A stretch of DNA of 59,328 nucleotides, filler included, from Sphacelaria rigidula (lineage: Eukaryota): assembly GCA_964200075.2 (NCBI GenBank). It is 8 parts of 8 records of this genome, joined end to end, with 100 filler letters (N's around TTAATTAATTAA, not from the genome) between each part and the next. Parts side by side here need not be neighbours in the genome. Positions count along the whole stretch, not along the records: positions 1 to 7,329 come from CAXNAA020015415.1; 7 more parts are not named here. The stretch is one strand, 5' to 3'. The notes under the pieces are model-generated. The model did no database searches. It saw nothing but the letters and a program-made list of their open reading frames with translations, and was not told the DNA's origin. The first letter of the stretch is position 1. Every line of letters starts with the position of its first letter. Below, piece by piece: positions 1 to 59,328 of the stretch. A program made the translations under genes and the position numbers.

Positions 1-727
1 CCCCCCCCCCCCCCCCCCCCAAAGGGATCCCTCGTCCCCGCTTAAAAACCAACCCCCCCCCCCCAAGAACCCCCCCCCCCCCCCCCCCCCCGCGCCCCTC
101 AACTGTCGCTTCGACAGGCTAGCTTTGCGAGATCCACCAGTATACCGGATCGGATTTGCAGGCGCGATGCCAGCGTAGGGACTGCATCCACTTCATTGAC
201 GTCGGGGGTACGTTGAGACGAATATGTTTTCTGCCGTTACCGGACCCTTCGGTTTCTGGTTTTCTATCCCGTCAACCTCACTTTGTCTACCGTTTCCTCG
301 GGGAACGTCCGTAGTTTTTCGAGCGATCGACCCATCTCTCGTTCAGCGAGTTTCTTGCTGTTAATTCTCGACGATTGAGTGAATATTTGGTGAGGAACAC
401 GCGCCCCGTACAAGCAGTGTGTTGTCTCATCACTGTCGGCGGTCACGTTTGCTGTCATTGTCGATGTCCATCACCTGTCAAGCGCTTGCCTCAAATATTG
501 ACCATTACGAACATTTAGCTCACCAGGTCCAGGCTTTGATTTCGCCGCATGCCTCCCAAAGTATGTGTTGGTATTTGAATTGATCGTAAAGATACCGCCC
601 ATGCCCCCCTCTCCCTCGATTCTCTAGAAAGAGATCGAAAGAGAGACGGTAAGGAAGGGCGGAGGAAGGAGTAAATGATTGACGGGTAAAGTTCCAGGTA
701 GTACTGGTATTCGAGGTTCGCAGCGAT

Positions 728-3700
728 ATGACAAGAAGAGGGGTTCAAATGAAATGCAAAGGGGTTGGACTGTACTGTTTCGCAAGAGGAAACGTAGAAG
801 GGGAGGGAGAACACTTTCGAGTCACACTAAAACAGAGCGTGAGCAAGGAGTGGGAAAGGATAGAAACAAGTTCGGTGTCGGCATGGTTTAGAAAAGTAGG
901 ATGGAAAGTATGCATAGCTGATGAAACAACAAACCTAGGACGTAGTCCACGGGTAAACGGACGGGGAGAGAGGCAGGGACAGGTAGGTGCCCGGAAGGGG
1001 AAGGGGAGGGGACATAGCGGCCCAAAGCAAATAGAATAACCAACCCGGAAACGGGAAGAACAGTCAAGCAAGGGAAAGTAGAAGTGGTGCACACGGAAAG
1101 GGGACCGGAGACAACGGGAGCGAAGATAATTATTCGGAGTGGAAGTTGGAAATAGGATCATGGAACGTGTGTGGATTCGTGACAGGCAAGCGCAAAAGAA
1201 TGCATGTAGCCCAACATGAAGTAAGATTCCGAAAGTCATGGGAGAAGAGGGGGTGGAAATAGGATGCAAAGTTGGAGAGTACGCATGGATAGGGAAAAGG
1301 CGGAATGGACAGAAGCCCGAGAGCAGGGGAGCGGGAGGAGTAGGATTCTTGGTCAAGGAATAGCTGCGTGACAGTATACGAGAGATGAGCGACACGAAAT
1401 TCGACGAGAGCATAGAGATAAGGGTACACGACCAGGAGAGCGGGGAACGAAGGACCGCTTCGTAGTGAACATCTACATGCCGCGGAATCGAAGAATGGGG
1501 TAAACGGTATACAACGGAGGTTTGGAGAAATAGCAGCAGGTGTACGAAAGTATGAAAGGCAAGGAAAGGTGATGTTTGCGAGAGATTTTAATGCAAGGGC
1601 AGGAGGAGCAGGTCACCCGGATGATATTATTGGGCAATACCGGGAATATTGGAAGAAAGCTAATGGGGTGAAAATGCCCAAGCTCCTTGGGCATAGCGGG
1701 AGGACGACGCTGAACAACGCGCACAAAAACCAGAAGCGCAATGAACATGGACTAGAAACCGCAAAGGCGAGATAGAACGCTCCGTTCTAACCTATATAGT
1801 GGTAGAGTATGGACATAGTGAAGAAATGGAAGTATATGTATGCCCGGAGGACGTGGGAACCGCAGATCACTGCGTTCGAATGCCGACAGACAGAGCTGAA
1901 AGAAAAAGGCGGGGTAGCAAGTTGTTCCAATGGAGAATCGATCAACTACATATGGAGAAAAATACCAAGAGTTCCAAAACGAGATGGCCAAACATGCCGT
2001 GGAATTTTCCGAACTGTTGGAATGCGTAGGTACAGTTGATACCGGGATGGAAAGAAATCAAGCAGGAGCGAACCTTGTAGAAGGATGGGAACGGGTGGTG
2101 AAGAGTGCAGCGAGTAAAGTCATAGGGAGGAAACTGATCGTATGCAACAGAGCGATCAAATGGAGGGATGGGGAAGTAAAAGAGGCTATCAGAGTAAGGA
2201 GAGAGGCCCACGCGAGATGGATGTCGAGCAAAAGTCCGGTAGGATGGAAGTATACTAGAGCTTGAAAGGAAGTAAAGAAGATGGTACAGCAGAAAAGAAA
2301 AGTTTGGAAAGGTATAGTGACTTAAATGGACGGAGATTTCGACGGCGGGTGAAACAAATGTGGGCAGGGATGAAAGGGATGAGAAAAAACCAGGCAGGAA
2401 AGATGAACGAGGAGATAATTACACTCTGGGCACAGAACGGCAAAATGGTCAGTAGTTCGAAGGGAAAGAGAAGAGTATTAGTCGAGCACTACCGTAAACT
2501 TAAAACTAAGAACATCAAAACCCAACACGGAGTTCGACATCGCATTCAAAAAAGAAATCAACGCGTGGGCAGAGGCAAATGCAGAGACGTCAAAACGGGC
2601 GGATAGAGACTCGAAATAATTGCAGAGATTTTACTAGAGATGAAGTGAAGGAGTAGTCGTCAACCCTTTCAAAAAGGGAGGCATGGATGAAGTAGGAAGT
2701 TAAGTGGGGATAACGCTACTTACTGACCACGGTAGGGAAAACTTTCTGTAAGATTCTGAATAATAGAGTAGGAACGATGCTAGAGACGGCAGAAAATATT
2801 AGCGAGGGACAAGCAGGAGATAGACCAAACCGTAGTTGCGTAGACCATGTGTACACGTTGGGTCAGATTATTCAGGGTAGAAAAGACACCGGGCTGACAA
2901 CGTACTGTTTCGTTTTGGACGTGCAAAAGGCTTATGACACAGTATGGAAAAATGGGCTGTGGAAAACGTTGAGGGAAACTGGGATCAGGGGAAACATGTG
3001 GAGAATGGTGAAGAAGATGACAGAGGGTGCTTAAAGTGCCATGATACCAGACGGGGATATATAGAAACATTTTGATATCTTGAGAGGGTTTGCACAAGGA
3101 TGTACGTCCATCACCCACTTTGTTTAAGGTATTTATCGATGACTTGATACGAGTAATAGAAGCAGCAAATCCAGGAGTCAACGTGGGTGAAGATGTGATA
3201 TCAGGTTTGATGTTTGCACATGATTTCGTGGGGATTTTAGAAACAGCAAAATGATTATAACACAATATGGAGAAATGGATTGTGGAAACCGTTGTGGGAA
3301 GCTGGGATGAGAGGAAAGACGCGGAGAATGGCGAAGAAGATGACAATGTGGCAAAAGTGCCATGATGCTAAACGGGGACATATCGAAATACTTGAATTTT
3401 TTTAAAGAAGTTGCACAAGGTTGTACGTTATCACCCCCCTTTGTTAAAGGTATTTATCTATGACCTGATAATAGCAATAGGTACAGCAAAGCAAGAGGTT
3501 CGGGTCGGTGAAGATGTGGTATCAGGATTGATGATCGCACATGATTTTGTGGGGATTTCAGGACCACCAGAAGGATTACACAGATATACAAGGCGCTAGA
3601 ATACACTAGGAACTGTATAGTGACGGCGAATGTTAACAAATGCGTGGTACTCGTCTGTAACGAAGATCAGAAATATCCGGGAAAGTTCAAGTGGAAGTGG

Positions 3701-5019
3701 GGAGAAGAGAAACTGCCGATCGTAGACCAACATAAACACCTTGGCGTAGAGATCTCAATGCACTCTTCTAGGGATGCACACATAAACAAAGTAATGGAAA
3801 AGGGTAAGACACAGATAGTCAAGATGGACGTGGTGTTCAGAGACGCCCACCTAGACACTAGGATTGAGAGACGTATCCTGATGACTGTGATCGTACCAAA
3901 GCTGGAATATGCAGGAGAAGTTTGAGGGGGGAACGTGAAGTTGGTGGAGAGATTGAAACAGTACAGGTGGCAGCAGCCAAGAGAGTAGTTGGATGCTCGA
4001 AAACGACGAGTAATACAGCATTGAGAGCAGAGTTGGGAATGTACTCACTTCAAAATAACAGACATGAAAAAAATGCGTGGAGATATACCTCGAAGAACAC
4101 GCAGAGAAAGAGGTTGCCAGCTATAGTTGATGAGAGCGTCTTATATGGCAACCAATGCGTATTTGCACAAAGATGAGGATTTCAGCCGGTGTACGTTCGG
4201 TTTTCTCCCGTGAAATGATGTTTCGGACCCCAGTTCGTTGGGCAATGTTTTGCGCGCAGTCCTGAGGAAACCAGACCAATTTTCTGATCCTTTGGACGCT
4301 GACTTGTGGTTTATCACCTTTTGTACAAACACGGATTGGTTGTCATACAAATCGGTCCAAGGCTGTATGGAAGAAAATTACGAAAGGGCAGGCTGGAACA
4401 AGGTAGGAAAGAGAAGTCGAGCAAGTATGGAAGGAGATAGGAGGAAACCAAGACGATATACTGTTCACATATGAGGGACTAAGAAGCGCTTAGACGTAAA
4501 GTGGACGAGAAGAAACACCTGGAGATATACGAGTGGTTGAGAGAGGGGATAGGGATGAAAGCATATTTGCATGGCCCGATCGACGCGGCGGAATATTTCA
4601 AACTGCGATTTCGGGTGGGGGGCCTGGACCTGCCAGGAAGAATAAAGATATACACCAGTAGTCGAGAGGGGGATAAAATAGATGCACAGAATCGCCCCTG
4701 TGGCAAAGCAGTAGAGAGCAGACCTGGTAAAGTTGCAGAATGTGCAATATACAAGGAAGAATGGGACGCGCTAGAGCTGGACGTGCGGAACGTGACCAAA
4801 GTTGACATGAAATCGCTTGATGCATTGGACAGTGAGGAGAAAACGATGGCTATACTAGGAGATAGCTGGTGGCCACACAAGAACGCGAAACAGGGCGGGA
4901 TAGGATATGTAAAAAGGTTTCTGTGTCATGAACGGAAGAGACGTAATGAGAGCACCAAAATGTTGGAGGTGTCTCTGTTAGGAGGAGGAAGGGTACTCTG
5001 CCTCGAAAGGAATGCGTGA
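728..5019 (+). pseudogene. Disrupted LINE polyprotein: N-terminal domain, AP endonuclease, reverse transcriptase, C-terminal Zn-knuckle-like region
   Basis: Collinear ORF fragments 728-1039, 1569-1775, 1930-2265, 2262-2606, 2777-3034, 3411-3599, 3620-3925 and 4501-5019 with recognisable APE/RT motifs, separated by stops and frameshifts. Confidence 0.88.
2932..3578 (+). repeat. Internal tandem duplication (~323 bp) of the RT core in LINE copy 1
   Basis: TTATGACACAGTATGG at 2932 recurs as TTATAACACAATATGG at 3255. Both units cover the AQGC..SP and (F/I)AHD motifs. Confidence 0.85.
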
Positions 5020-5101
5020 TCAATGGCCAAACGACAAAGAAAAGCGAAAAATGAGTACGCCCCCCTCTCCTCACGGGCGCGCCCTATCCCCCACCCCCCA
5101 T

Positions 5102-7329
5102 CTATTGCTCGTATTCGGAGTCTGTAGCGACATGACGAGAGTGGAGTTTGAAAAGAAATGCGATGGAGTTGGATTATACTGTTTGGCAATGGGAGAAGTA
5201 GAAAGGGAGGGAGAACACTTCCGAGTCACACTAAAGCAGAGAGCGAGCAAGGAGTGGGAAAGGATAGAAACAAGTAAGGTATCGGTATGGGTTGGAAGGG
5301 TAGGATGGAGAGTATGCAGTGCTAACGGGATAATAGACCTAGGACGTGGTGGACGGGCAAACGGAGGGAAAGAGGGGCAGGAACAGGTAAATGCCCGGAA
5401 GGGGAAGGAAAGGGGACACGGCGCACCGAAACATATGGACGAAGTCCAAACCGGTAAGGGGCAAAACAATCACGCAAGGGAAAATAGGAGTAAGAGACAC
5501 GGGAAAAGGATACACAACAAGATAACATATACTGATTCGGAAAGGAAGTCAACGGGATCATGGAACGTGTGTGGATACGCCACGGACAAGCGCAAACGAG
5601 AAGAGATAGCGCAACAAGTGAGTAAACACGACCTAGATATAGTAGGAATCCAAGAGTCATAGGAGAAAGAGGGGGTAAAAATAGGACGCAAAGTTGAAGA
5701 GTACGCATGGATGGGGAAAAAGCGGAAGGGACAAAAAGGACAAGAGCAGGGGAGCGGGGGGAGTAGGGTTTTTGGCCAAGGAATATCTGTGTGACAGTAC
5801 AGAAGTGATCGATGACACGAAATCCGACGAGAGCATATGGATAAGGGTACCAGGACCGGGGAACGAAGGACTTCTTTGTAGGGATTATCTATATGCCCCC
5901 AGAATCGTAGAGTAGGGTGGACGGTATTCAGGGTAGGTTTGGAGAGATAGCAGCAGATGTAAGTATAAAGGGCAAGGAGGGGTCATGTTAGTGGGAGATT
6001 TGAATGCAAGGGTAGGAAGAGCAGGCGAACCGGATGATATCATTGGGCAATACGGGGAAGGTAAGAAAAACACGAATGGGGTAGAGATGCTCAAGTTCCT
6101 TGAGCATAACGAGATGAAGACGCTGAGCGATGGAGTACCAAAGCTAGAGGCGCAATGGACATGGACGAGGAAATGCAAAGGCGAGATGGAACGCTCCGTT
6201 CTTGACTATATAGTGGTAAAGCGTGGAAATAGCACAGAAATGGAAGTACGTTTGTGCGCGTAGGACGTGGGAACCACAGATCACTGCCTAATATGCACAT
6301 GAAGCGAACAGACGAGAGCTGAAAGCAATAGGCGGGGTAGGAAGTTGTACAAATGGAGAATCGATAAACCAGATATGGAAGAGAAACGGCAAGAGTTCCA
6401 AGAAGAGATGGCCGAAAATGCAGTTAAATTTTCGGACCTGTTGGAACGCATTGGTACAGTTGATACCGAAATGGAAACAAATCGGGCAGGAGCGAAGGTT
6501 GTAGAAGGATGGGAGCAGCTGGTGAAGAACACAGCGAGTAAAGTCAAAAGGAGGAAACTGATAGTATGCAACATAGCAGTAAACTGGTGGGATGAGAAAG
6601 TGAAAGAGGTTATCAGAGTAAGGAGAGGGGCCCACGCGAGATGGATGTCGAGCAAACGTACGGGAGGATGGGAGGAGTATAATTAAGCTCGGAAGGAAGT
6701 AAAAAAGATGGTACAGCAAAAAAAGAAGGAAGTATGGGGAGGTGTAGTGAGAAAAACAAATTGAGATTTCGACGGCGGGATAAAACAAATGTGGGGAGGG
6801 ATAAAAGGGATTATGGGTAACCAGGCAGGAAAGATGGACAACGGGATAGCTACACTCCGGGCACAGAACGTTGAAATGGTCAACAGTTGTAAGGGGAAGA
6901 GAGAAGTGCTAGTCGAGCACTACCGTAAACTAGGAACACCAGAAACAAGCACGGATTTCGATAAGGAATCGAAAAAAAATCAACGTGTGATGAGAGGTGA
7001 ATGCAGACACGTCGAAACGGGCGGATAGAGGCTCGACAGAATTGCAGAGAGAGTTTACGAGAGATGTAGTACAGGAGTGCATAACTAGACCCAAGAACAG
7101 AAAGGCGGCAGACGGAAAAGTGAATCAAATTCTCAAGTACGGGGGAGAAGGAATGATTACCATGATGGTCATGCTGTACAACTGGATCTGGGCAAACGAG
7201 TACACACCCAAGAGGTGGAGAGAAGGAGTAGTCGTCAATTTTTTCAAGAATGGAGACAAGGCAGAACCAGGAAACTATAGAGAGAAAGCGCGACTGAGCA
7301 CGGGAGGGAAAACGGTCTGACATTGTGAA
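5102..7329 (+). mobile_element. Second copy of the same LINE family, cut off by the contig end
   Basis: Collinear with 700-2750. APE motifs GSWNVCG, DIVGIQES, GGVGFL, LVGDLNAR and SVLDYI, plus RT N-terminal WREGVVV..FK.GDKAEPGNYR. Multiple stops. Confidence 0.92.
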
Positions 7330-7429
7330 NNNNNNNNNNNNNNNNNNNNNNNNNNNNNNNNNNNNNNNNNNNNTTAATTAATTAANNNNNNNNNNNNNNN
7401 NNNNNNNNNNNNNNNNNNNNNNNNNNNNN
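7330..7429. other. Artificial contig linker N44-TTAATTAATTAA-N44
   Basis: 100-bp linker with stop codons in all six frames, identical at seven positions. Confidence 0.99.
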
Positions 7430-7991
7430 CCCACGCCGTACCGACAAGACCGGTCATGGCCTTCGTCGGAGGACGGGGAACGGAGGAGGGTTGACTATTT
7501 TGGTTTAATTATCATATAACGACCCGTACCCGTGTGCCTCAGACGTTACAATGACAGCCTTCCCCTGCTCGCCGCTGCCTTTCACTATCTTCTTCCCATT
7601 TTCAGCCGCGGGGTCGCGAGGTGAGGTCAGTTTTGCGTCCATTCCGCTCGATATCTTCAGCTGCTACAGAAGCAATACAGGCGTCATGGACCACATCTGC
7701 ATGTCATCAAGCTGGCCTGGCATGCGCCTCAGAGAAGCGGTACTTGTACACCACACGCCACAACTGTTGTTAGTTGAATTGCTTACATTCTGGCGAGGTC
7801 ATATTTTATGTCATTATCCATACTATCTCATCTAACCCTCTCTTTTGTCCTGGAGCCCCATTGTAGATATAGAGTTACTAGAGGTGAAGTCCCGTGTTGC
7901 ATATCTCTGCACCCTCACCATCCAATGGCGAAAAGGAAATATTCCGAAAGATCAACCGGACGGTGTCGGTGATAGCCAAGCTTCTAAACCA

Positions 7992-8704
7992 CGATCTGGA
8001 CTAGCTGACGGTGATTTTTTTTAACAAAGAGTGGAGATGTCATTGGTAGTTCGAAGAGTTAGGCGCTGAAATGTTGACACGACATTTTTACCATCAACCC
8101 GCGCAACCCTATTGAGGGTGCAGAGGGAACCCCCCCCCCCAGGAAATAAGAGCGAGTTGAAGTTTCAGCCTAACAGCGAAAATGCTATAATTTCCTTCAA
8201 AATTGATGAAAACAACGACAACACTCGAGATATACGGGCACTCGCGTCAACGCCATTCTGGTGAAGTTTCGACCAAAAATACCTCAAATTGGGCGCGGCA
8301 TCGCACTTTTCGTGTCACACGGCCGCGCCCCTCTAATTCAAGGGATGCAGGAGACTCCAATTATGCGGGTCGTGAGTTCGAATCTCGGCAGATTCTCTTC
8401 GTTTTTTCGTTCGTCGTTAACCCTTAGACAGCGAGAGTAGGCCATTTGCTGAATCGGCATCAATTTCACTTGAAAAAAGTATGCATGATCCAGATAGACA
8501 ACCCTCGCGGTCTAAGGTTTACGGTAATATATCATGCAGTACATTTTTTATTTTTTTCATATTTTTTCTTCATTCAGGGGCCGTGCCGTGTGTCACCAGG
8601 TTGGTCTGCACTTCATAGTGATACGCTCAAGTCGTGCTGATTTGGAAAACTGTAGAAGTTGTAGTGTGGAAAGCGAATGCGGGATACACTGCTGGCCCAG
8701 CTCG
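7992..8704 (+). mobile_element. MITE family with TIR CGAGCTGGGCCAGC and internal tRNA-like cassette, copy A
   Basis: Left end CGATCTGGACTAGCTGAC (degenerate), right end GCTGGCCCAGCTCG, flanked CA/CA. Internal GACTCCA...GAGTTCGAATC. Homologous to 11683-12247 and 32526-33119. Confidence 0.75.
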
Positions 8705-9251
8705 CACGAGTAGACAAGCATACGTCTGAAATCCCAGAGAATATGCCCCGAGAACTCGAATAAAGATGAAACGCGTGTAAAAACACGTGAAACGTACAAG
8801 CTTGTTCACATTAAAAATCCAAAATTTAGTCTCCGGCGATTCCTCGCGCGTTTTCCCGAGTTAGACCACGAAATTTTGCAGACTTGTTTCCGAAGGCATT
8901 AACTAAAACTTGAAGCATGGGCTTGTTTGATTTTTGGTTTTGAGGTCGAGATAGCCGGGATCCGCCCCCCCCTCCCGGTCAAGTTGTTCGACCGCAATCA
9001 TGGATAAATAGCCAACACAAAGAAAACAAAACCGCCTATTCTTCGAGAGTTAGGGAATGCCTTCGAGAACATGTATGCAAAACGTCATGTTCTAACTCGC
9101 CGAAACGGCGTGAGGAAATTCGAAAACGTTCGCTAAAGTATAAAAATGTCTGCGTGCCCCTCGTATTATTACTTGATGAAAGTATAGAATCGCCCTTTTT
9201 GAGGGTTGTTTTCACGGTACAAGACTCAGCCGATTCAGTTTTTCGAGTTGA

Positions 9252-9734
9252 GGCCGGATGTTATGGCAGACAGATTTTTGGCCAACGGATTGTTTACTTT
9301 AGGGACGTTTGACCCACCTTTTGACCACCAAACAGGAAAAACCGCCAACACACGTCTCGGACGCTTTGCATCGCCCCACAGAAAGGACCCTAGCCTACTT
9401 TTTCAGATTCGCTTGGCTCCGAAGTTTTGAGATTGGCCGCTGAACAAAAATTCGTTCGCAAAAATCTGTGCTTGCCGATCCACAGATTATTGAGCAAACT
9501 GGTGGGGGTCGGCAAGCACAGATTTTGACGCACGAATTTTTGTTCCGCGGCTAATCTTGAATCCTCGGAGCCAAGCGAATCTGAAAAGTGGGCTAGGCTC
9601 CTCTCTGTGGGGTGATGCAAAGTGTCCGAGACGTGTGTGGCCGATTTTCTCTGTTAAGGGGTCAAAAGGTGGGTCAAAAGTCTCATAAGTCAACAATCCG
9701 TGGGCCAACAATCTGTTTGCCATAACATCCGGCC
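9252..9734. mobile_element. Fold-back PIF/Harbinger-like MITE
   Basis: Ends GGCCGGATGTTATGG...CCATAACATCCGGCC with a 3-bp TSD TGA/TGA. The two ~230-bp arms are inverted copies of each other. Same TIR as 48694-49516. Confidence 0.85.
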
Positions 9735-11682
9735 TGAGTAACGTAAATTGGTACACATGTTTCTTTGCATACCACCTAACCCTCAGATGTCGAACTTCTG
9801 GGGTTGAGGCATTCTGTACCGGTCTCCGGGGGTCTTTATGCTGGGACCCCCGGAAGCCGGTAGAGAACGGAGAAGCTTCGAAATCTTGCCAAGAGTACAA
9901 TTTTTCAATTTGGAGCATCAATATTACGGAACTGAAAGTTTGAGGATGGTATGAGCTTTTCTACAACAGGTACAAGGGAAATCGTCACGAGGCTCCGTGG
10001 GTCTTTCGTACGGATCATGAGTGGAAATTAGACGACGCCGACGTTCCTAATCACCGAAACATTACGGTTCCGGGCAAAATTTGACCCCGTTGGAACCGTT
10101 TTCAAATCTGTTACCCCCGTTAGATTCCCAAGCTGATGGCGGTTACTACGATTCGAAGCATGTGGAGATTCGGTGAAAATTGGGCTTGAAATTCGTGTTT
10201 TCAATTTCGGAACAATTTGAAAGGTACTGATCAATCGAGACATATCCCTGTCCATAGCGCCACCGCTATAGCTTTGGACAATAATCCGGCTATGTCACTC
10301 TTTTCGTCTGTTCATTGCGGTCAGTATGATACCATGTATGCGACTATTGGGTGCGTATTGCGGAAGGCATTTGCTGATGGCAGAATTTTGGACCTTTTGC
10401 GTGAATCAGCCTGTATCGTGAAGCAGTTTTGTGCAGATTGGACCCCAGACTTGCACGCAGGTCCAAAAATACGGCGGGTGTGAAACTTGTCGTTACTCCA
10501 AGGTTTGTGTAGTGCTCCAGACAAGACGCAACAAGGCAACACAACACGTACACATCCAGCCCCGAAAAAACACGCACAGACACCCACCACTCGCGCATTG
10601 GTTTCACTGCTAGCCCTTGCTAATCTACACATGGCACTCTTTGTTTGACGGAAATCTGTTCTGCATGGGACGAATGGCGGCCGCGTAAGTTTCACAAACA
10701 ACCGAAAACGTGTCGTTGCTGACCGTTTCGTACGCGTGTGCTGCGCGCGCATCTCACACAAATCATTATCTCCCAATGAACTCTGAACAGATTTTAGCAA
10801 GCAGTGTTTCGCCCAGTTTGCGACTACCTCCAAAACGCGACTTGGCGAAGTAAAATAAGTTGACAGGGCAAAATAATGACAACTGCGGTGATGCACAGCT
10901 GTACTATAGTACTTATCCTAAACCACCCCTCCGTCGAAGTCCTGTTCAGTTCCGTCAAGTACAACACACGAACGATCGACGGGTGACCGGAAAAAAAGCC
11001 GACGAAATATGCACAAGCCCAAAAGCCATTTTCCCATATGGCCGACCTACACGCGATCGCAGATAAGTCGCGCTGCACGAATGGCAGCCAGCTGAAGCTC
11101 AAGAGGCAGGTAGTAATTGCTAATGTCCATCGTTTAACATCAAAGTTGCACCGATTACGTGTCGGGATCGTACGTAAATTGCAAAAGACGGACCTTACCC
11201 TACGTCAACATTTGTATCCGCGGCAAGAGTGTGCGCAGCCGCGACGTCGAGGGCTGACAGAGATACGTCTTACCTGCACAGAGCAATTTGATTCGTCTCT
11301 GCAGTTGCTGCGTGTATTGAAATATTAACATCTCGGCGGGGGGTGTTGGGACACATGAGATGCTGTGGAAAAGCGTATCAGATACTCCGGAGTACAAAGA
11401 AAGCCGATATCCAAAATAAGCCGGCGGTAATTGCGCCGCGTTTAAGTGTGTTCGTAGTCGTAGATATATTCTCCCACACTCTTTCGTGGAAACAACAGCG
11501 TTGTCCGTCAGCGGAGAAGATAGTTCAAATATGTGCATGCCGTGATAGCTGCGGTGGCGCGTGAGGTCACTGCCCAAAAGATAGCGTGCAAACACACGCA
11601 CACTGTCGTCAGCGAGGCCGTGACCCCTCCGTGTCCAAGGTCAGTTCTCATGGCAAACAAGCAACGCCAAAAACATATTGTA

Positions 11683-12247
11683 CGAGCTGGGCCAGCTGAC
11701 AGTGATTTGCGAATGTATTCGGGCCGGACAGAAATTTGACACAATATTTGTATCATCACTATGCATAACCTTCCCGGGGATGCCAAGAAAAAATACGTAC
11801 ACTTGGAGCGATTTGACGTTTCTTCAAAAACTAGAAGAATATTATTACTCCGTGAAAAAAACAAAATACGTGGGCATCGCTACTGTAGTTGTGTGTCCTT
11901 CAGGGGAGGAGATCCTGTTGTAATGGCGGCCACAACTTCCAGAAATTTGGCGCAGCATCCAACTTTTCGTGCGGCACGGCTGCGCTCTTTTAATCCAAGT
12001 GATGCAGTTGACTCCAACTATGGAGGTCACGAGTTCGAATCCCGACGTATTACTTTTTTTTGTTTCGTCGGTTAGGTGATACATTATGCAGCACATTTTT
12101 TTCATTTTATTTTCATTCAGCGGCGGTCCCGTGCGTTACAACGTCGGTCTGCAGGTCACACCGATATGCTCAAGTCGAGCTGATTTGGTAAACTTGACAA
12201 GTTGTGGTGTGACATGCAAATGCGGGATTTACTGCTGGCCCAGCCCA
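11683..12247 (+). mobile_element. MITE family CGAGCTGGGCCAGC, copy B
   Basis: TA-CGAGCTGGGCCAGC...GCTGGCCCAGCCCA-TA, with internal GACTCCA and GAGTTCGAATCCC at about 12010-12043. Confidence 0.8.
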
Positions 12248-14758
12248 TAGCACTATTTTTCTGTTCATAACCTAATCCCTGCGTTATTTTGCGTCCGAAC
12301 GGGAGTTAGGGAGGTATTGACAGTTTCTAATGAGTTTCTATTTCCAAATTATTAGGAGGAAAAACTCGAGAATACTTTTTTTTTCTGGTGATGGAAGTTT
12401 TCTTGTTTTTACACATACACTCTTCTGCCAGAGTGGTCAAGTCCGGTGAAACAAGCTGTGTCATGTCTGCATTTTCCGGTTGTCGCAGATCTGTTTCGAC
12501 TGGACCAGCATTATTGTCCAAGAACAGTCGACACGAGTAGATAAATGTTATTAATTTCTACACCTGACCACCACTTTTTTCTAAACTCGACTGATGTTCA
12601 TATTTCTTGGACGAACATACAACTTTGGCAAAACAGACAAAATACGAGCACCTGAATACGTTCATGTGACGTCGCAGATTTTGCGACGATGAACGCAAGG
12701 CAAACCAAGGAGGTAACATCCGCCCAACCATCGTTTACCCTCAAGACGAAGCAGAAGGACAAAAAAACAGTCGTTCAACATGTTGTTGTGTTTGCCATAA
12801 TTAGTGGTTTGAATGACACGCTGCGAAAATCGACTTGATGTGTGATGCGCAAGACCGGTGGTGACACGACCCTCCGGTTCGGTGCAGATGGTGCAGTATC
12901 AAGGATATCGGCGAGAGTGTGGCGAAGAACACCACCCGATGTTTTTCGTCCGACCGATCAACTCAATAGTGATGCGGATGATTCCCGGCAGCTGTCTCCT
13001 TGCACGAACGCCGTAGTGTCGAGGCGCGAGCGTTGGCAATGCTGCACGGTGAATCGAAATGTTGACTGGCATACGACGGTGTCGTTCAGATTAGTCGTCT
13101 TGCGTTTAATCACTCATTTGATTGGCATTACTATGTAGCCTCATGCACCATAGGCGATTCGCTGACGGGCGTAGCCAGATCACCCCCAGTACACTTTCGC
13201 ACCCCACGGTGCACCGCACATGCACGAACCATCATCTTCATGTACATGAGACACGGCTCTTGACTACAGCGTGGAGAAAAACAACCTTGACTTGTACAGA
13301 GACGTTTGCGCAATCTATCTACATGTACAGAAAGAACGGTCCCACTATTCTCCACAGACTGAGATCAGAACGCGAAATTGTCTTCATTGTCGTCGCCCGC
13401 TTCCGATGCCGAGTCCTCTCTCTCTCGGACGCGCTGCACTCTGAATCCGAATCTCCGATTCAGATCCCGGCTGCAGAGTTCGACTTGTGTCTGACGGGTT
13501 ATCCCTTTTGGGACTGGGCTTCCGGAATGACCAATGAGGCTGGTTAGGAATGACGCGTCTGGCGTCTGCACGAAACTGATAGTGGCGTGTGATAATCTGC
13601 GTATGTAACCGCAGGGTTATGGCGAAGACCGAAAGTGTCATCCAATCTATTTTCAGGTGCAGGGTGCGCATTAGGTGGTGTACATGTGATGTAGCAAGCA
13701 GTATCGGTCGCGGTAGAGAGCTTCCAACAGGATACGGCGACCGGCGGGCCACTCACCACTTGTGGCTTTGGATAGTATTTTTGTCTCCATCACCTTGCCA
13801 CACAGCCCTTTGTGGTCGGGGTGGGCTGCCATTCCCCTCTTCGTTACATGCGGCAAATTCTCTTCGAAGGGTATATCAGCTTTGCGGCGCGCATACATAC
13901 AGATTAGTACAGTACAAGTACAGTGCAGTACGCTCCCCGACTGCAGAAGCAGCTGCCGTTGCGTACTCCCTTGCACGTTCTGGGCAATTCTCAGCTACCG
14001 AGATCAATTGCCTATATACCGCTTCTTCATCCCTGCCTACTACATACATGCTAACTGTACACTGCAGGTCATGGGAATAGGGATAAGCAGAATTCATTAC
14101 GGTAGCTCCTTTTGTCTTTCCACGGCCCACCTGGATTTTGTGCCTCGTGAAAATGACCACATTATAGCATGCATATTCCTTCCCGTTTTTTTCCGGTCCA
14201 CCTTGTGTTGAAATAAATTACTACGTTTCAGTATATAATTGGGACCCAAAAAATACTCCGGAAAAACTCGGGAACGCTATACTGAGTTCAAGTAATACCA
14301 TAAAAACAAGCTGCGACCACCCTGCACTTAGAAACCTGGGGAAGCTCATCTGGGCCAGGGATAAGGCCCCCACACAATCTTTGCAGTGGCATCACACTCG
14401 CTACCAATTCCCGCGCTAGTCGTTCGGGTCTGGTCGGTAAATTTCGCCTCGCCGTGGTTGGGCAGGTCGGTCCCTGACATATTGTTTTATTATTCCACTA
14501 ACACAGGGTAAACCCTGTGTTAGTGGGAGTCCGGTGTTAGAAAAGTGTCGCGATGAACCCTTTGACGTGATCGCTAGAGTTGGCGCAATGGCACTTAAGC
14601 CAAGCAAGCAGACAAGCTGCTTTGGAGTGTAGACAGAAGGTGGTGTTCAAGGTGCCTCTTGCGGGCAAGACAGTCCACACAACCCACCGTGTTGAACGGT
14701 CAACCGAGGAGAGTGGTTCATGCATCACAACTGCTATCCCACATCATATCCTCACATC

Positions 14759-14858
14759 NNNNNNNNNNNNNNNNNNNNNNNNNNNNNNNNNNNNNNNNNN
14801 NNTTAATTAATTAANNNNNNNNNNNNNNNNNNNNNNNNNNNNNNNNNNNNNNNNNNNN
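14759..14858. other. Artificial contig linker
   Basis: N44-TTAATTAATTAA-N44. Confidence 0.99.
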
Positions 14859-15736
14859 CCTCCCGAAACCGTGCACTTTTTGGGGGGGGGCTATCGTAGA
14901 AAGTGTCGTATCAATTTGGGAGAGAATCTAAATTGAATATCGAGCGTGTAGAGGTGCTATCCACCGGAACCGGAGCTAAGTCCCATGTTACACGTGCATC
15001 GGGCCAGAACCCACAAATAACAGTTGGGCAGTGAAAAACAGTGCGGCGTCATACGCAGCCGAATAGTACGCACTATTGTTTTTTGTGGTCCTGCACAGCA
15101 CTACTCCGTACAGTGTAGGGCACACCGGATAGCAGCTGCTGCCGTTATGTGCAGTTGTAGGCTTAATATTTGTGTGAGGGGAGCGTTGAATAACGCCGTA
15201 AAGTTGCATCTTGAACAACAAGGAACAGGCGCTCGTGAGGGATTCTCATACTCTCCCAGTAATCCGCAGGCTTACTCCTCAGAAGCATTTGTGGTAAGAT
15301 AGAGAGTAATCTTCGTGTGCTTACTCTAGTACCTCGTTCTTTGCCATTGCGGCCACGAACATACGATTCGCAATCCTTCACCCCGATGCTGGAACGCTGG
15401 CTTCTGACCTCTTTCTTCACTTTATTGACTGTAATCTATGTTGTTCAAAAATAAGCTCTGTATATCCTCACCCCGCTTGGTATGGAAGTGAGCAGATGGC
15501 AGCGGCAACTACTGCTGTGTGTCCAGGTGCCCCTTGGAGCAGGATGCGTTTGGTGTTTGTTTGACGAAGTTATCCCCGAAAAACCGATATCGATAAGGGT
15601 TTTAGACTGAAAAAATCTAGCGAACAAGCTATCGCAAGGATCCGATCGCAAGAATCACGACGCAAGAACGGAGTCGCAAAAAACCTCTAAGTCGAATTTT
15701 CACCCGCAGCAGAACCAACTTCACTTTGTGAAATTG

Positions 15737-15950
15737 GAATATCTACGCCAAGGTATGCATACTGGTCCACGATCGGCGGTTCCTCTTCTCCCCACTTCGA
15801 TTTGAACCCTACCGGATTTTTCTTATCTTCGTTACAGACGAGTACCGCGCATTTGTCCACGTTTGCTGTCACTCTTCATCTTCTCGTGTATTCAAGCGCT
15901 TTGTCTATTTGCTTCTGCGGCCCTTCTGATGTTTCTGGAGTCCCCACAAA
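15737..15950 (-). mobile_element. Internal RT fragment of the same LINE family
   Basis: FVGTPETSEGPQKQIDKALEYTRR*RVTANVDKCAVLVCNEDKKNP...WGEEEPPIVDQYAYLGV matches 3546-3755. Confidence 0.88.
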
Positions 15951-15970
15951 GGCAGTCGGAGGGGGGGGGG

Positions 15971-16034
15971 CGTACTCATTTGTTGCTTGCCTTAGTCGTT
16001 TGACCATTGACCTCGCATCCCTTTCGAGACGGAG
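15971..16034 (-). mobile_element. 64-bp 5'-truncated LINE 3' end with a 24-bp target-site duplication
   Basis: Matches the 3' end of copy 1 (...AAATGAGTACG). Flanked by the exact direct repeat CAAAGGCAGTCGGA-G10 at 15947-15970 and 16035-16058. Confidence 0.9.
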
Positions 16035-16115
16035 CAAAGGCAGTCGGAGGGGGGGGGGAAGTGATATTTCACACCCAGTTGACCAGACGGCACCCACTTG
16101 TGTCCCTCCCAAGTA

Positions 16116-17283
16116 CCATTCTGTTCGGAAATATAGTTCACTTTGGGACTCCGGACCGCATATCTCCTGCTGTAGACCGAATGTTTCGAAACAGTATTTT
16201 TGCACCGCATAACTTGTTTAGGCGGGAACCGCCAAAAACGCACTCTTCAAAAGTCAGACCACAACCCCCTGTCAGCGAGCGCCAAGTCGCACCAAAACGA
16301 GCTCGCTCGCGGAAATCCCCTGTTGGAGCACTTATCTGCGGACCTACCAACATGTCCGAATCCGAAGGCGCTGCCAATGTACCAAAGCGCAAGAATTTGA
16401 CCATCCGGAGAAACGCGGCATGATTGCTGAGCTGCTCAAGGGCAGCACCAACGGGGTTCTGCAACATGCTGACATCAAGAGGGTGGCGACCATTTCCAAG
16501 CAGCATCCACGCACGGTGAGCAAGTATTGGCAGCAATACATGCCAGAAGGAGGCCGGTGTAGAAGATCCTGACCTCCACACCAAACGTAAAGGCAACAGC
16601 GGCCGGAACGACGTCACCGCTCTGAGGGAGGAGCTGCAACAGATACCCCTCAAGAATCGCACAACGCTACGATCAATTGCGGCCGCTTTGGATCTTGCGC
16701 CGACAACCCTGCACGATAACCTCACGAAGTTAGGCCTACGCGCATGCTCGAGATTCCTGAAGCCACTTCTTCGTAACGAGGGAAAGGCTGCCAGGCTGGA
16801 GTGGGCTTTGAGATGGCTCCGGACCTCCCCTAGCGGTGCACGCCGGTTCCGCAACTTCTTCGACTTCGTTCACTTGGACGAGAAGTGGTACCCCAGGGAT
16901 GATGCACCAGCATCCCCGGTTAATCCCGCCCCATTTTTCTTTTTCTCCGCCTGAAAGCACGGTCGATGATGGATTCCGGAAGGACTTGGTCATCAAACAA
17001 CGCGATCACTTTCCCAACACTACCGAAGGCGAACTATGGTACCGTATCGCGTCTATGGCTGAAACCTCGGGGTTGCTGAACCAGCGTCCCCGCCCCCCCC
17101 TAGCCCACCCCCTAGCCCCCCAAACCTCTTTTGTTTTTTATTGCCTTTGAGCAGAAATTGACCGTGGCACATATTAGAGCGCAATAGAACTAGAACGCTA
17201 ACAGATCCTCTGTACCCCGATAGTCCAAAAGTGAACTATATTGCCGGATTTCCAAAAGTGAACACTATTTACGAACAGAGTGG
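16116..17283 (+). mobile_element. Internally deleted Tc1/mariner element (plant-type DD39D/Stowaway-like)
   Basis: TA-flanked imperfect TIRs of about 33 bp (CCATTCTGTTCGGAAATATAGTTCACTTTGGGA versus CCACTCTGTTCGTAAATAGTGTTCACTTTTGGA) enclosing a transposase fragment. Confidence 0.88.
16352..16890 (+). pseudogene. Truncated, frameshifted mariner transposase (HTH region up to the first catalytic Asp)
   Basis: KRKGNSGR...RTTLRSIAAALDLAPTTLH...KPLLRNEGKAARLEWAL...FDFVHLDEKWY follows the DD39D mariner pattern and stops after DEKWY. Confidence 0.88.
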
Positions 17284-19859
17284 TAGGGCTGAACGTCGCA
17301 GTGCTGTTGCACTTTTTTGTATTTAGCACACATGACAGTCGATATGTGGCTGGTAGTTGTATTTGTCTGTCGTGGGCCATTCGTCGAGGAGTACAGCGGG
17401 AGATGACGAAGGGACTGCGGGGTCTACGCGTGCTTTAATGTGTTCGATTGATCACCTTGTTGGGCCGATTGATGGCTCTGTTAAGAGCTTGTGCTTGTTG
17501 ATGGCGTGAGGAATGACCTCTTCTTGATGTCACCGTGGCGTGTCCTTCGTTATCGTGGTGGCCTTTTGTTCTGACTACCCGACACGCATGACCTGCCTCG
17601 TTCTGTGCTACCTTTCTATCTGTGACTACTAGTCCCGTCGTGTCATGTGTTCTGACGGCTTCCGATACTCACAGAATGGGGCAGGACGCGGCGGGGTGGT
17701 GTGACCATGTGATTCTTGACTAGATTTCCTTGTAGGCGTATGAGTATGCGAGAATCGACTTGTGCTGGGGTGTATTGGGGGGGTGGCAGCAATTGTAGGG
17801 AGCATTTGATGCTTACTATTGATACATCTTCCAGTTTCTTCGTTTACTTCCTGCGGTGTCTCGCCCCATTCGCTTAGAAGACGTCGAGCATCCTGCTCGA
17901 GCGAAACTCGCAAGTATGTGCTCGACAGCGGTTGGTAACGATATTCAACACGCACGCGCTCACAGAGCATAACGAGTTTCACGCAGACATGCAAGCGCAT
18001 GAGGAGTGTGTGAGATCCTATAGCACACATTCGAATCTCTATATTTCGCTCGATCAAATACCCCCCCCGCATTTCCTGGGTTCTCCACAGACCTAAATGG
18101 ATGGAATCTGAACATTCCCGCCTTCTCCACTCTCCGTCCTTCCTGGGACGCGAGATCAATTTCCTCGAACACGAGTAAAGTGATGCTACGGTACGGGTGC
18201 AATTTTTAGTTCAGACGTTTTTGGGGACTGCACACTAAGGCCCTAATGTTTGGAATCGAGAAGCTCCTGAAGTGCAAAGCGTCAATATATATATATATAT
18301 TGTTTATTCATCTGTTGCACCCTGAACCCCTGCCCTTCCTCGGGACGAGTCCGTGGTCTCAAGGAAGGGATCGGCCCATCTCTTGCATGTTGATCTCGCT
18401 GGTCATGACCACCACCCCCACACCGCATTGACTCTCGTCGAACAAACCCAGTCAAGTGCGTTTTGCCTACTCATGTACTCACGCTTTCGATGATGGAAAA
18501 TTAGATACTAGGGAGAATACACCTAATTAGTCGGGACCCGAACCCATGATCTCTCTACCCTAGTGATGACAGTCGGACGTTTTTCCATTCACACAACCGG
18601 GGCGCGGCGGCTACAAATGGTGCACACCGCTACCATAGAAGGCACTTACTACGGTAGCCCCCCCAAACCAGCCCAATACTATAACGCAGATAATGCTCAT
18701 ACAGCCCCTGATCTTTCGTTTCAGGCTGCATGAAGCGCCTCATATGGGCGACATGGGTGAAAACGAACCCGAGCGTGGGATTATCCAGCTGCTCGTTGTG
18801 CTCGGCTTTCTTCATTTCGATCCACGTGTAAAATTTTCATCCTCAAACCAGTCACCTTTTTCGGGTGGGCTATCGTCGAAAATGTCAGGATAACTCGATA
18901 GAAAACAGGAGTCGCTCTTTTTTTTTTCGAATAATGAAGGGCATAGCCGATGAAAAGGAAAGACACGAGCATCGTAGATATCGTCCTCACAGGTGCCCGA
19001 ACTACCACTAGTGCGGGGGTCATTTTCCCCCTTTTTTCGCTTCTGAGGTTGAGTGAACACCTTGCGATGATGCGCCCTGCGCATGGGGGAAACAATACAA
19101 ACATGCGGTTGAATAGTGCTTTTCCCTTCCGTCTGTGAAAATAACGTTGACGTTGAGAAACGCTTCATGTCTCGTAGCTACTTTTGTGCATACTTCAACC
19201 GTTGGAGGTGCCATGTTAGTCACTATATAATATCGTAGTGTGTAAATACCACTCGTTTGGACATACTGCTACTACTACTGCTGCTGCTGCTACTACTACA
19301 AAACGCCGGTGACAACTAAGCACTCTACACACGGGACATCAGACACCTAACGTAAGAGTGTAACTCTCTCGTGCGATCCCGTGTGCTAGACTGCAGGGCG
19401 CCGCTTCCTCTCGCGAGTAATAGTACACCGATGAGATGGCAATCACGCCGCCCCCACAAGCTCATCACTTACCATGACCACAATTATAGGATCAGCAGGT
19501 TCAGTGTGGTGTACCTCCTGTACCTACCAGTGGTCCGGGCAAGTTTGGCGAGGCGTGAGATAGTGTTGCCACTTTGGTTACAGGTTATCGCTACCGTGCG
19601 CTCGTGTGCATACATGTGTACAGTATGAGCGTGGTCGGCATCCGAGGTCATCGGGACAGAGCGGGCGAGGAGCAAAAGCAAATATTCGAACCTCGCAAAG
19701 CCCACCAGACGTTTCGGCTTTGGTTGAAGCTTCTTGATCGATTTCTCAAACAAAATTGATAATTGATTGCTCTGCTTCGCAATCGCGCTTCCAATTTTCT
19801 TTTTCCTTTTCCTTTGTTAGGCTTCTTGTTGTACTTGTTATATATCGAAAAATATATAA

Positions 19860-19968
19860 CTTGTTGAAACGCGTTTTTTTTTATCTTTTTCCGTCATTTT
19901 TGCCCCGAGAAGAGGGCTCAGCGGATGTTGACACCTCAAACCGTTCCAGAGCACCTTTTCGTTTTCCG
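19860..19968 (+). repeat. Fragment of the PIF-like MITE family seen at 51270-51592 and 49528-49998
   Basis: Shared TTGTTGAAA...CCGTC.TTTT...GAAGAGGGCT..GCGGATGTT.ACACCT...CCGTTCCAGAGCACCTT. Confidence 0.6.
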
Positions 19969-19986
19969 TAGGTCACAATGTAGTGG

Positions 19987-20174
19987 GTGAGAGGACCGCG
20001 TGCTTAGAGGACCGCACCGTAGCTCGAAACACGTCAGTATCGACGTTTTCCAAAACCATCGGGCCAATCCCTGCAGGTACCACGACCCTGACCCCAACAC
20101 TAACCCTAACCCCAACCCCAACCGTAGGGATGTTCAACTTCCGACGCGGTCCTCCAAGCACGTGGTCCTCACAC
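19987..20174. mobile_element. Small MITE with 29-bp TIRs and an internal degenerate (CCCTAA)n-like tract
   Basis: GTGAGAGGACCGCGTGCTTAGAGGACCGC versus the reverse complement of GCGGTCCTCCAAGCACGTGGTCCTCACAC (3 mismatches). Hexamer tract at 20084-20123. Confidence 0.7.
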
Positions 20175-22187: not shown

Positions 22188-22287
22188 NNNNNNNNNNNNN
22201 NNNNNNNNNNNNNNNNNNNNNNNNNNNNNNNTTAATTAATTAANNNNNNNNNNNNNNNNNNNNNNNNNNNNNNNNNNNNNNNNNNNN
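22188..22287. other. Artificial contig linker
   Basis: N44-TTAATTAATTAA-N44. Confidence 0.99.
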
Positions 22288-22585
22288 GGGTGAGCTGCAT
22301 CCTGCTAAGATTGTTCGGCCGGAAGCCTGCTGATTATCTTGCATTTGGAGGGGGTGAGACAGGTGTAACGCCAGCAGGTTGCTAGTACTGCAGCAAGCCG
22401 TGCTTGTGCAGTTACAGCACGAAACAAACTGGAAGTCAGACCCGTATTTAGTCATGGATACCGTGGTGGCTTGAGCTCAGGCATGGCGGCGGGTCGAAGT
22501 ATTCGGAAAATCATCCACTTCGTCGCCGCAGTCTTCGAGCTCGCGTAACCGCGGATCAAAATCCGCAGGCAGTGCCGCCGCCAAT

Positions 22586-23725: not shown

Positions 23726-24020
23726 GGGAATTCCGGCTCCATGTCAACCTGTTCGAACACACATGGGAAAACCCTGGCCCCCTGTCAACCTGTTCGGAAA
23801 TAAATGGGAAATCCCGGCTCCCTGTCAACCTGTTCGAAAACACATGAGAAATCCTGGATCCCTGTCAACCTGTTCACACACGTATGGGAAACTCCTGGCC
23901 CCCTGTCAACCTGTTCGAAAACACATGGGAAATCCTGACTCCCTGTCAACCTGTTCGAAAACACATGGGAAGTCCTGCTCCCCTGTCAACCGTTCGAAAA
24001 CACGTGGGAAGTCCTGTGAC
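23726..24020. repeat. Minisatellite, ~7 copies of a 40-41-bp unit
   Basis: TGTCAACC core at 23742, 23783, 23823, 23863, 23904, 23944 and 23984. Approximate consensus CCTGGCCCCCTGTCAACCTGTTCGAAAACACATGGGAAAT. Confidence 0.95.
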
Positions 24021-32320: not shown

Positions 32321-32525
32321 GGAGAGGGGAGGGGGGGGGCGTACTCATTTGTTGCTTGCCTTGGTCGTTTGATCATTGACCACGCATCTCTTTCGAGACG
32401 GAGCACCGTTCCCACTCCTAATACAGACATCTCCAACATTGCGGTGCTCGGTATGTCTCTTCCATGCATTACACAAGACCCTTTCACATAGTGTATCCCC
32501 GTCTTGTTTCGCCGTCTATCTCCTA
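32321..32525 (-). mobile_element. 5'-truncated LINE 3' end abutting a C-rich run
   Basis: Reverse complement aligns with 4856-5065 and ends ...AAATGAGTACG-CCCCCCCCCTCCCC. Its 5' side is interrupted at TA by MITE copy C. Confidence 0.88.
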
Positions 32526-37144: not shown

Positions 37145-38102
37145 CTATGGCATGCATGATCATGAGTACACCCCCCCCTCCCCCCTTCCAGTAGATGACC
37201 TCAAATGACGCATGGCACTTACTGGGGGGTTATTAACACCTGTTTTTTTCCGACAAGATGTCATTTTCCATGAACATGTAGAAGTTAAAAGTTAGGCATC
37301 TGTATAGGAATTAGTGCTACAAGAAAATATCCTCACCGGTTTTGAGACATAAGTCACGTGCCTGTTCATGTGTATGTCTTTGCTGAGCTGTTTTCGTGAG
37401 GGTGCATCCTTCCATGCATTGCAAGTGGCGCACGCTGGTAAGTAAACCCCACTGCTGCGATGTATGCAAACAATATACATCTCCAATTTATACCTTCGCA
37501 GTTATCCTGGTACTTTCGGGGCAGGGTCGGAACACCTCGAGCGTGTTGCGATTTCTTTTCTTCACGATTTCACATGGTTTCAACTGTACGTTCTTTTCAA
37601 CTGTCTCTGTACTGCTGATGCAGCTGCGGCTGCTGATACTCTACCGTACATGCGATGTTTGTCATCAACCGTGGCTGACTACCACGGCATGAAATAGTCA
37701 GTGTGTCACCGCTCTCCATTGAACAGTCTACTGCACGCTGCTGGCGTCTCTGCTTAGTGTTTCACAACAACACCAAAGACAGAGTGAAGCGATGTTAACA
37801 GCACAAGAGGGGGTGCTAGGCAGGGGGCAAAGACTACGAGCAGAGCAAAACGCACGTCCCATGCGCATAGGTTTCTATAGTTGTCTGGTCTTCACCCCAA
37901 TGGTCAAATACGGCTTCGCTGCGAGGTAGGTCATCTGTAGGCTGTCATCTGTAGGGGAACAACGTTGCCATTCTGACCGTGCACAACCGTGAAAGTGGTC
38001 AATCTCCTCTCCCGCATTGGTCCTGGCTTAGAATTTTCCGTTGGAAACTTCAAAAACACACATGGTTGACGTTGAGCTTTCCGGTTGTTTTATCAACAGT
38101 CA

Positions 38103-59234: not shown

Positions 59235-59328
59235 GGGGGGAAGGGGGGGGGGGGGGCTCCTCATTTGTGTCTTTTCTTAGTCGTTGGACCATTCACCCCC
59301 CATCCTTTTCGGGCGGAACCACCGTCCC
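59235..59328 (-). mobile_element. LINE 3' end abutting a C-run (noisy contig end)
   Basis: G-run followed by CTCCTCATTTGT..CTT..CTTAGTCGTT.GACCATT.ACC...CATCC.TTTCG aligns with 15961-16034. Confidence 0.75.

Follow-up and report, generated by a model that had tools for sequence, protein, structure and literature searches.

Why does every recognisable 3' end of one retrotransposon family in the brown alga Sphacelaria rigidula run straight into a homopolymer of C? The question is raised by a stretch of 59,328 nucleotides (nt) of this genome (assembly GCA_964200075.2), hereafter the window, which carries several copies of a long interspersed nuclear element (LINE). The window consists of eight pieces of ~7.3 kb joined by artificial linkers (N44-TTAATTAATTAA-N44), and the order of the pieces across the linkers carries no meaning. 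The C-run could be a tail copied from the RNA of the element, or it could have belonged to the target. In the copies that keep both ends it opens the target-site duplication (TSD) on each side, and the run is target DNA that was present before the insertion, not an RNA-templated tail. As an explanation of the whole locus we consider it fairly probable, with room for doubt, that a decayed RTE-X-type LINE of a brown alga, which has no tail, integrates at C-runs by target-primed reverse transcription.

The 3' ends of the family and the runs that follow them

The sequence-only reading of the window had described four 3' ends of a LINE, on four different contigs, each running into a C homopolymer. 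All four are found (pieces 1, 3, 5, and 8). Copy c1 ends at 5059 (+) with AAATGAGTACG, followed by C6; c2 ends at 15971 (-), followed by C10; c3 ends at 32340 (-), followed by C9; and c4 ends at 59257 (-) with AAATGAGGAG, followed by C14. A profile of the last ~78 nt (nhmmer) recovers exactly these four 3' ends in the window (E 1e-23 to 8e-19), the next best hit having an E of 1.2, and a search with c1 (blastn, tblastx) matches three short (-) strand fragments of the 3' end (15972-16034, 32341-32517, and 59260-59317). There is also a probable fifth end of 26 nt, which is cut by the start of piece 6. Aligned to c2 with one gap, it shares 19 of 26 positions, for a score of 11 where random 26-mers reach 2.6 +/- 1.5. 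Among the 57 26-mers that precede C/G runs of at least 6 nt it ranks fifth, after the four known ends, and the next scores 6.

A C-run thus adjoins the 3' end in 5/5 detectable ends (C6, C10, C9, C14, and C8), while the AAATGAGTACG terminus varies in two of the five. Neither poly(A) nor a short tandem tail is present at any of them, the fifth included, as had been reported for the first four. Runs of C or G of at least 6 nt start at 4.9e-4 of oriented positions in the window, and the chance of 4/4 junctions falling at C-runs is ~6e-14 when the junctions are treated as independent. The association of the 3' end with C-runs is real and far beyond chance. In all five copies the base after the run is T, and the further bases are, by eye, mostly pyrimidines. 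Apart from the run, this T, and the pyrimidine richness, the flanks differ among the five copies, implying that insertion is not strictly site-specific in the manner of R1, R2, or Tx1 elements.

The copies and fragments of the family are listed below (ORF, open reading frame; UTR, untranslated region). P0002 is an intact protein relative.

603..614 (+): 5' TSD copy of c1, GCCCCCCTCTCC; the identical 12-mer is at 5059-5070 and the bases beyond differ
615..5059 (+): copy c1, whole ORF (P0002 residues 9-1360), decayed (tblastn, Pfam RVT_1)
674-1000, 1157-1874, 2687-3755, and 4696-4761 (+): approximate N-terminal, endonuclease, and reverse transcriptase domains and CCHC remnant of c1
5052-5054 and 5055-5059 (+): 3' terminus of c1, stop codon TGA and 3' UTR GTACG (C-terminal translation)
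5059..5070 (+): 3' TSD copy of c1, opening with the C6 run
5084..5097 (+): C-rich 5' flank of copy 2, CCCCCACCCCCCA, the expected place of a candidate 5' TSD
5098..7329 (+): copy 2, 5' part (P0002 residues 17-758), leaving the piece at its end (blastn, tblastn)
15733..15950 (-): fragment F, internal reverse-transcriptase piece (P0002 residues 919-990), 5'-truncated (blastn, tblastn)
15947..15970 (-): 3' TSD copy of c2, C10 TCCGACTGCCTTTG, a perfect 24-mer found again at 16035-16058
15971..16034 (-): copy c2, 64 bp, strongly 5'-truncated: last 18 codons, stop, GTACG
16035..16058 (-): 5' TSD copy of c2 (24-mer repeat)
32340..32517 (-): copy c3, 178-bp 3' fragment; C9 run at 32331-32339 after the 3' end; 5' edge meets another repeat
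37145..37170 (+): probable fifth 3' end of 26 nt, truncated where piece 6 begins, ending ATGAGTACA; C8-T-C6 from 37171
59257..59328 (-): copy c4, 3' fragment leaving the window, ending AAATGAGGAG; then C14 run 59243-59256

In c1, c2, and c3 the stop codon lies 5 nt before the end of the element: TGA, then GTACG. The relatives P0001, P0002, and P0006 end in ...GQMTKASNK, and the translations of c2 and c3 end in ...GQTTKASNK (that of c1 in a decayed form of it), so that QTTKASNK in the window copies stands against QMTKASNK in the relatives. Because the C-terminus of the relatives, TGA, and five more bases reach the C-run junction in these three copies, the junction is judged to be the true 3' end of the element, with a predicted 3' UTR of 5 nt. 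It is not internal to a longer consensus, a possibility that the sequence-only reading had kept in view.

The 3'-end profile finds no non-autonomous partner of the RTEX-N type in the window. When the 400-nt stretches upstream of all C/G runs of at least 7 nt are compared with one another, no second family ending at runs emerges. Common 'tacgata' endings at 14882, 29912, and 50090 were rejected, as they extended to no alignment.

The C-run as target

Copy c1 is flanked by a perfect 12-bp TSD, (G)CCCCCCTCTCC, confirming the bracketing repeat that had been noticed before. Copy c2, described earlier only by its end at 15971, turns out to be just 64 bp long (15971-16034) with a duplication of its own, a perfect 24-bp TSD (C10-TCCGACTGCCTTTG). 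In both copies that keep both ends (2/2) the C-run opens the TSD, and its length does not differ between the two sides of the element, 6=6 for c1 and 10=10 for c2. Since both TSDs begin with the run, at equal length on each side, the run existed in the target before the element arrived. Truncation at the 5' end is variable (copies of 4445, 178, and 64 bp), as is the length of the TSD (12 and 24 bp).

In target-primed reverse transcription the start of the TSD marks the first nick, which is made on the strand opposite the element. The site of LINE-1 (L1) is TTTT/A, and L1 RNA ends in a poly(A) tail. By this standard geometry, the TSDs of the window place the first nick just 3' of the G-run on the opposite strand (5'-Gn^N), and the primer has oligo-G at its 3' end. 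The suggestion that the family is a G/C counterpart of L1 therefore stands for the nick, which mirrors TTTT/A, and is not supported for a C tail encoded by the RNA, the run being duplicated target in 2/2.

Integration would then proceed at short C-runs followed by pyrimidine-rich sequence. Once the opposite strand is nicked directly 3' of the G-run, reverse transcription would start exactly at ...GUACG; the second strand would be cut 11-24 bp further on, and the C-run would become the first part of the TSD, flanking the insert on two sides. Because the 3' UTR is 5 nt and there is no poly(A) signal, a transcript with a full 3' end must read into the flank. Transcripts would read through the 5-nt UTR into the flanking C-run of the donor copy, and this oligo-C would pair with the oligo-G primer at the new site and so fix the start of the complementary DNA (cDNA). 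An RNA ending in oligo-C, as proposed in the sequence-only reading, would be needed only in the form of such read-through. Pairing of oligo-C with oligo-G on read-through RNA is plausible. It predicts equal run lengths, as seen, since the product carries the run of the target itself. In the sense strand of the element C is scarce (15% C; internal runs of C4 or longer number 1-3). Mis-pairing within the RNA should therefore be rare and the downstream oligo-C nearly the sole partner for the oligo-G primer. The endonuclease itself may prefer G-runs, or pairing may select among nicks.

Each insertion leaves two fresh C-run targets, and a head-to-tail pile-up of copies is therefore expected. Copy 2 begins 27 nt after the TSD of c1, right behind CCCCCACCCCCCA, and is head-to-tail with c1. 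Fragment F begins 20 nt past the C10 run used by c2; in the simplest reading this run is the 5' duplication of fragment F itself, hit again by c2. The same head-to-tail layout, with the copies in one orientation, is seen in each of the two pieces that hold two copies.

The alternative that survives best keeps the run on the element: the RNA would end in oligo-C, templated or added, and the 3' run would be copied from it. We regard this as unlikely. It accounts for a C-run at all five 3' ends, and simple-repeat tails are described as normal in RTE-clade elements (PMC6007223). However, a tail would lengthen the 3' side only, whereas a run of the same length also lies 5' of the element within a perfect TSD in 2/2 copies, and the Ectocarpus family RTEX-2 is annotated with "(C)n termini/TSD" (PMC12477816). 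Note that an oligo-C end and a C-run target are not exclusive, as a short read-through oligo-C would leave no trace.

Less probable is capture without the endonuclease, in which G/C runs or G-rich structures would break or stall replication and the reverse transcriptase (RT) would use the free 3' ends. The several C-tracts in the flanks of c1, c3, and c4 and the reuse of targets would agree with such capture, but clean 12- and 24-bp TSDs and exact 3' ends are those of endonuclease-dependent insertion. Moreover, the endonuclease domain is complete in the intact relatives (Pfam E 3e-12 to 8e-15), and the N, E, D-x-N, and D-H positions of that of P0002 align to an exonuclease III structure, at a weak E of 0.06. 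Chance or artefact is hardly credible: although piece 1 begins with C20, C12, and C22 and assemblies are prone to homopolymer errors, the runs at the junctions are internal to pieces and have unique flanks and TSDs (which rejects an assembly artefact), chance is met by the ~6e-14 given above, the ORF of the intact relatives stops 5 nt before the junction (which rejects a junction internal to a longer element), and the same feature was curated independently in Ectocarpus (PMC12477816).

Integration at C-runs by target priming remains the favoured explanation, and several points weigh against it. The curators' entry "(C)n 3'" for RTEX-1_Ec32 (PMC12477816) can be read as a tail, in favour of an oligo-C end. 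No more than five 3' ends were examined, and both ends survive in just two copies. Assemblies are prone to errors in homopolymer length, and as numbers the equalities 6=6 and 10=10 carry little weight. The G at 5059 closes the element consensus and also opens the c1 repeat, which makes the nick position of c1 uncertain by one base. No recognisable TSD was found for c3, and the repeat that adjoins its 5' edge may explain this. The consensus structure predicted for the RNA of the last 72-100 nt is weak and uninformative (-5.3 kcal/mol; a compensatory change in 1/15 pairs among 4 sequences, the row 15971-16048 taking in 14 nt of the 5' TSD of c2). Read-through and pairing are steps that we infer. 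Finally, the family is assigned to RTE-X because Ectocarpus families of the same anatomy have been classified there by their curators.

A bolder version of integration at C-runs makes brown-algal RTE-X a true G:C counterpart of L1. Its endonuclease would cut at the 3' edge of G-runs, the donor's duplicated target on the read-through RNA would serve as template, and landing pads would be copied in this way, driving both head-to-tail arrays and the excess of G/C homopolymers. We hold this to be doubtful. The family exploits G/C runs and adds to them, but its role as a source of runs, which had been put forward to help explain the many G/C homopolymers of the window, is weak. Among the 23 C/G runs of at least 8 nt in the window, its junctions and TSDs account for 4 (5 with the piece-6 copy), and most C/G runs of the window have no recognisable element alongside.

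Encoded protein, host genes, and background of the window

The RT piece at 2714-3034 of c1 matches Pfam RVT_1 above the cut-off (E 4e-9), and the endonuclease gives a sub-threshold match only (E 0.002) in the decayed ORFs of the window. A protein search with this RT piece returned 61 proteins at E <= 0.001 among 89 candidates; the best matches are ENA proteins at 83-74% identity, and a protein of Ectocarpus sp. CCAP 1310/34 is at 77%. In each of the intact relatives, P0002 (1360 aa) and P0006 (1328 aa), one ORF encodes Exo_endo_phos, Exo_endo_phos_2, and RVT_1. In P0002 the two endonuclease domains are at residues 170-414, ahead of RVT_1 at 740-989, and c1 and copy 2 align there. RVT_1 is found on P0002, P0006, and P0023 with E 1e-30 to 3e-40, and a CPCG...H....C motif lies near residue 1243 of the intact relatives. 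The best PDB matches of P0002 and P0006 are LINE-1 ORF2p (E 7e-21) and R2 proteins; a phmmer search of the P0002 endonuclease stretch against PDB gave no LINE endonuclease at E <= 1. The ORF of the element is ordered as a small N-terminal domain, an apurinic/apyrimidinic (AP)-type endonuclease, the RT, and the CCHC motif, and no second ORF family (gag-like ORF1) is in the ORF list of the window. With both endonuclease and RT found, the family is, on its predicted domains, a non-LTR (long terminal repeat) retrotransposon with an AP-type endonuclease, and its earlier description as a LINE is upheld.

The copies are old, decayed, and diverged. Frameshifts and stops are numerous in c1: its alignment with P0002 (tblastn) breaks into 15 segments, with all three frames represented, and the ORFs are short. 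Copy 2, in which homology begins at 5098, is 77.5% identical to c1 over 2007 nt (blastn). Fragment F is 78.4% identical to c1 over 218 nt (blastn) and 72% to P0002 (tblastn), and c3 is 77.2% identical to c1 over 180 nt (blastn), corresponding to P0002 residues 1305-1360 (tblastn). P0002 and P0006 have the N-terminal domain at the start of their ORFs, and in c1 it lies ~60 nt from the 5' end; full-length elements may have a longer 5' region than c1.

In c1 the RT region is duplicated in tandem (2923-3257 and 3246-3578, 335 bp), with halves 78.6% identical, a divergence roughly equal to that between c1 and copy 2. Because a single TSD brackets all of c1, this region looks like a two-template chimera (e.g., from template switching) or the trace of an old duplication within the source element. 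Copy c1 also contains one insertion that is foreign to the LINE and resembles a miniature inverted-repeat transposable element (MITE):

4134..4357 (no strand): MITE-like insertion within c1, with 38-nt inverted repeats that are 79% complementary

It splits the P0002 alignment between residues 1119 and 1117, and no second copy of it is in the window. The repeat at the 5' edge of c3 belongs to a dispersed repeat unrelated to the LINE, with copies at 32501-32760, 12010-12250, 8351-8715, and 38849-38942 that are 73-82% identical.

The N-terminal domain (~90 aa; 674-1000 and 5108-5377 in the window, P0002 residues 1-100) is conserved and has no Pfam match. Its AlphaFold model has the order beta-alpha-beta-beta-alpha-beta, with a pLDDT (predicted local distance difference test) of 69. 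Against PDB, RNA recognition motif (RRM) or ferredoxin-like folds are the best matches, weakly (E 0.19-1), and among at least 500 matches at E <= 10 there is none at E <= 0.001. The modelled fold suggests that the domain may be an RNA-binding module fused to the endonuclease-RT protein.

At the other end of the protein, a motif G-C/R-V-V-N/D/Y-G occurs ~10-13 residues before the stop (window 5010-5051) in most of the seven relatives compared (P0002, P0006, P0007, P0021, P0023, P0027, and P0036). It is kept even in distant relatives (55-60% identity in the RT piece), and P0021 continues for ~30 residues past it. Because the 3' end of the element is coding, the motif may stem from a signal in the RNA for the reverse transcriptase no less than from a constraint on the protein.

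The pieces and linkers of the window are placed as follows.

1-7329, 7430-14758, 14859-22187, 22288-29616: pieces 1 to 4
29717-37044, 37145-44472, 44573-51900, 52001-59328: pieces 5 to 8
7330-7429, 14759-14858, 22188-22287, 29617-29716, 37045-37144, 44473-44572, 51901-52000: linkers

The host is a brown alga, as the relatives of one exon indicate. This is the first exon of a UAA-family nucleotide-sugar transporter gene at 43023-43361 (-), with a Gly/Ser/His-rich N-terminus. Its best named relatives are from Laminaria digitata (88%), Ectocarpus sp. 6 (88%), and Undaria (70% over 91% of the query), none of them identical. An open frame of 360 aa at 45097-46179 (+), rich in glutamine and alanine runs (CAG/CAA repeats), is possibly part of a host gene. 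Rfam at gathering thresholds gives 0 families and a tRNA scan 0 genes for the whole window.

The G+C content of the window is 44-55%. Homopolymers of at least 10 nt number 6 for C and 8 for G against 2 for A and 3 for T (i.e., 14 G/C and 5 A/T), where base composition predicts 0.03-0.08. The three long runs at the opening of piece 1 are clustered within 91 nt (positions 1-91). Near the end of piece 5 (36940-36988), a G run of 25 nt is joined straight to a (TG)n microsatellite.

Comparison with known systems

RTE elements are recognised by a very short 3' UTR that ends in simple sequence and not in poly(A). The family in the window has a single endonuclease-RT ORF, a 3' UTR of 5 nt, and no poly(A) at the five ends, which are features of RTE-X. 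The closest known counterparts are in Ectocarpus, where a 2025 study of the mobilome (PMC12477816) lists seven RTE-X families, the most abundant LINEs of that genome. In its supplementary file 1, RTEX-1_Ec32 is described as "single EN-RT ORF; (C)n 3'" with a "C-rich" TSD and RTEX-2_Ec32 as "(C)n termini/TSD". The same file gives RTEX-N1/N2_Ec32 as non-autonomous, with a common 3' end of 60-100 bp, a "C-rich" TSD, and the remark "can be present in tandem", which is noted for RTEX-N1. RTE families of Ectocarpus end in (CAA)n and its CRE family in (CA)n (PMC12477816). As far as these table descriptions go, RTEX-1/2_Ec32 are like the family in the window in their single endonuclease-RT ORF, (C)n 3' end or termini, and C-rich TSD, and the tandem occurrence of RTEX-N1 resembles the head-to-tail copies seen here. 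In addition, the Ectocarpus protein at 77% to the RT piece closely resembles P0006, whose C-terminus the window copies have (by eye). Copy c1 is shorter, 4.4 kb against consensus lengths of 5.5-5.9 kb for Ectocarpus RTEX (PMC12477816).

The C-run habit is therefore already on record for Ectocarpus RTE-X families, in table entries and without analysis. The main text of PMC12477816 has no "C-rich", "homopolymer", or "insertion preference", and the figures in its supplement 4 show nothing on RTE-X. The gain is accordingly modest, because the basic observation has been recorded there. The host gene of the window is 70-88% identical to those of Laminaria, Undaria, and Ectocarpus, and the association with C-runs is now seen in a brown alga other than, or divergent from, the curated Ectocarpus strain. 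This suggests that it is a stable property of the lineage and not an oddity of one genome. For C- or G-run targets of LINEs outside Ectocarpus, nothing relevant was found in the literature; poly-C/poly-G tracts in the L1 3' UTR and a terminal inverted repeat (TIR) of a ciliate Tc/mariner element came up and are unrelated to C-run targeting.

If integration proceeds as set out above, the rule of target-primed reverse transcription that the primer end equals the template end is not tied to A/T, and a lineage of LINEs can subsist on C/G homopolymers while having hardly any 3' UTR. Some long G/C runs are by-products of these insertions. For repeat annotation in brown algae, LINE ends that lack poly(A), TSDs with C-runs, and tandem clusters are to be expected.

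Among better studied systems, the RTE-clade LINEs and SINEs (short interspersed nuclear elements) with microsatellite tails described by Nishiyama and Ohshima (2018; PMC6007223) are similar in their very short 3' region, simple-sequence end, and TSD start matching the repeat. Their TSD starts with a base that agrees with the 3' microsatellite repeat, and the roles proposed for this match are base pairing or guided cleavage. The difference is that the window has a C homopolymer of 6-14 nt wholly within the TSD, and not (CAA)n, (GTT)n, or T-runs with an overlap of 1-2 nt. The 'T-stretch ten bases upstream' signature reported in the same paper is not evident in the five copies, for which no dedicated examination was made.

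Mammalian LINE-1 shares with the family an AP-type endonuclease with RT, target-primed reverse transcription (on the explanation favoured here), and a TSD that opens with a homopolymer complementary to the primer end (TTTT/A vs. Gn/N). Unlike LINE-1, the family has no poly(A), no separate ORF1, and a 5-nt 3' UTR, and it belongs to a different clade; it is L1-like in geometry only. For R1Bm, the I factor, and R2Ol, the downstream flank carried on the transcript has been proposed to pair with the nicked target (PMC6007223). These elements use one defined gene or repeat, whereas the family in the window seemingly uses any short C-run followed by pyrimidines.

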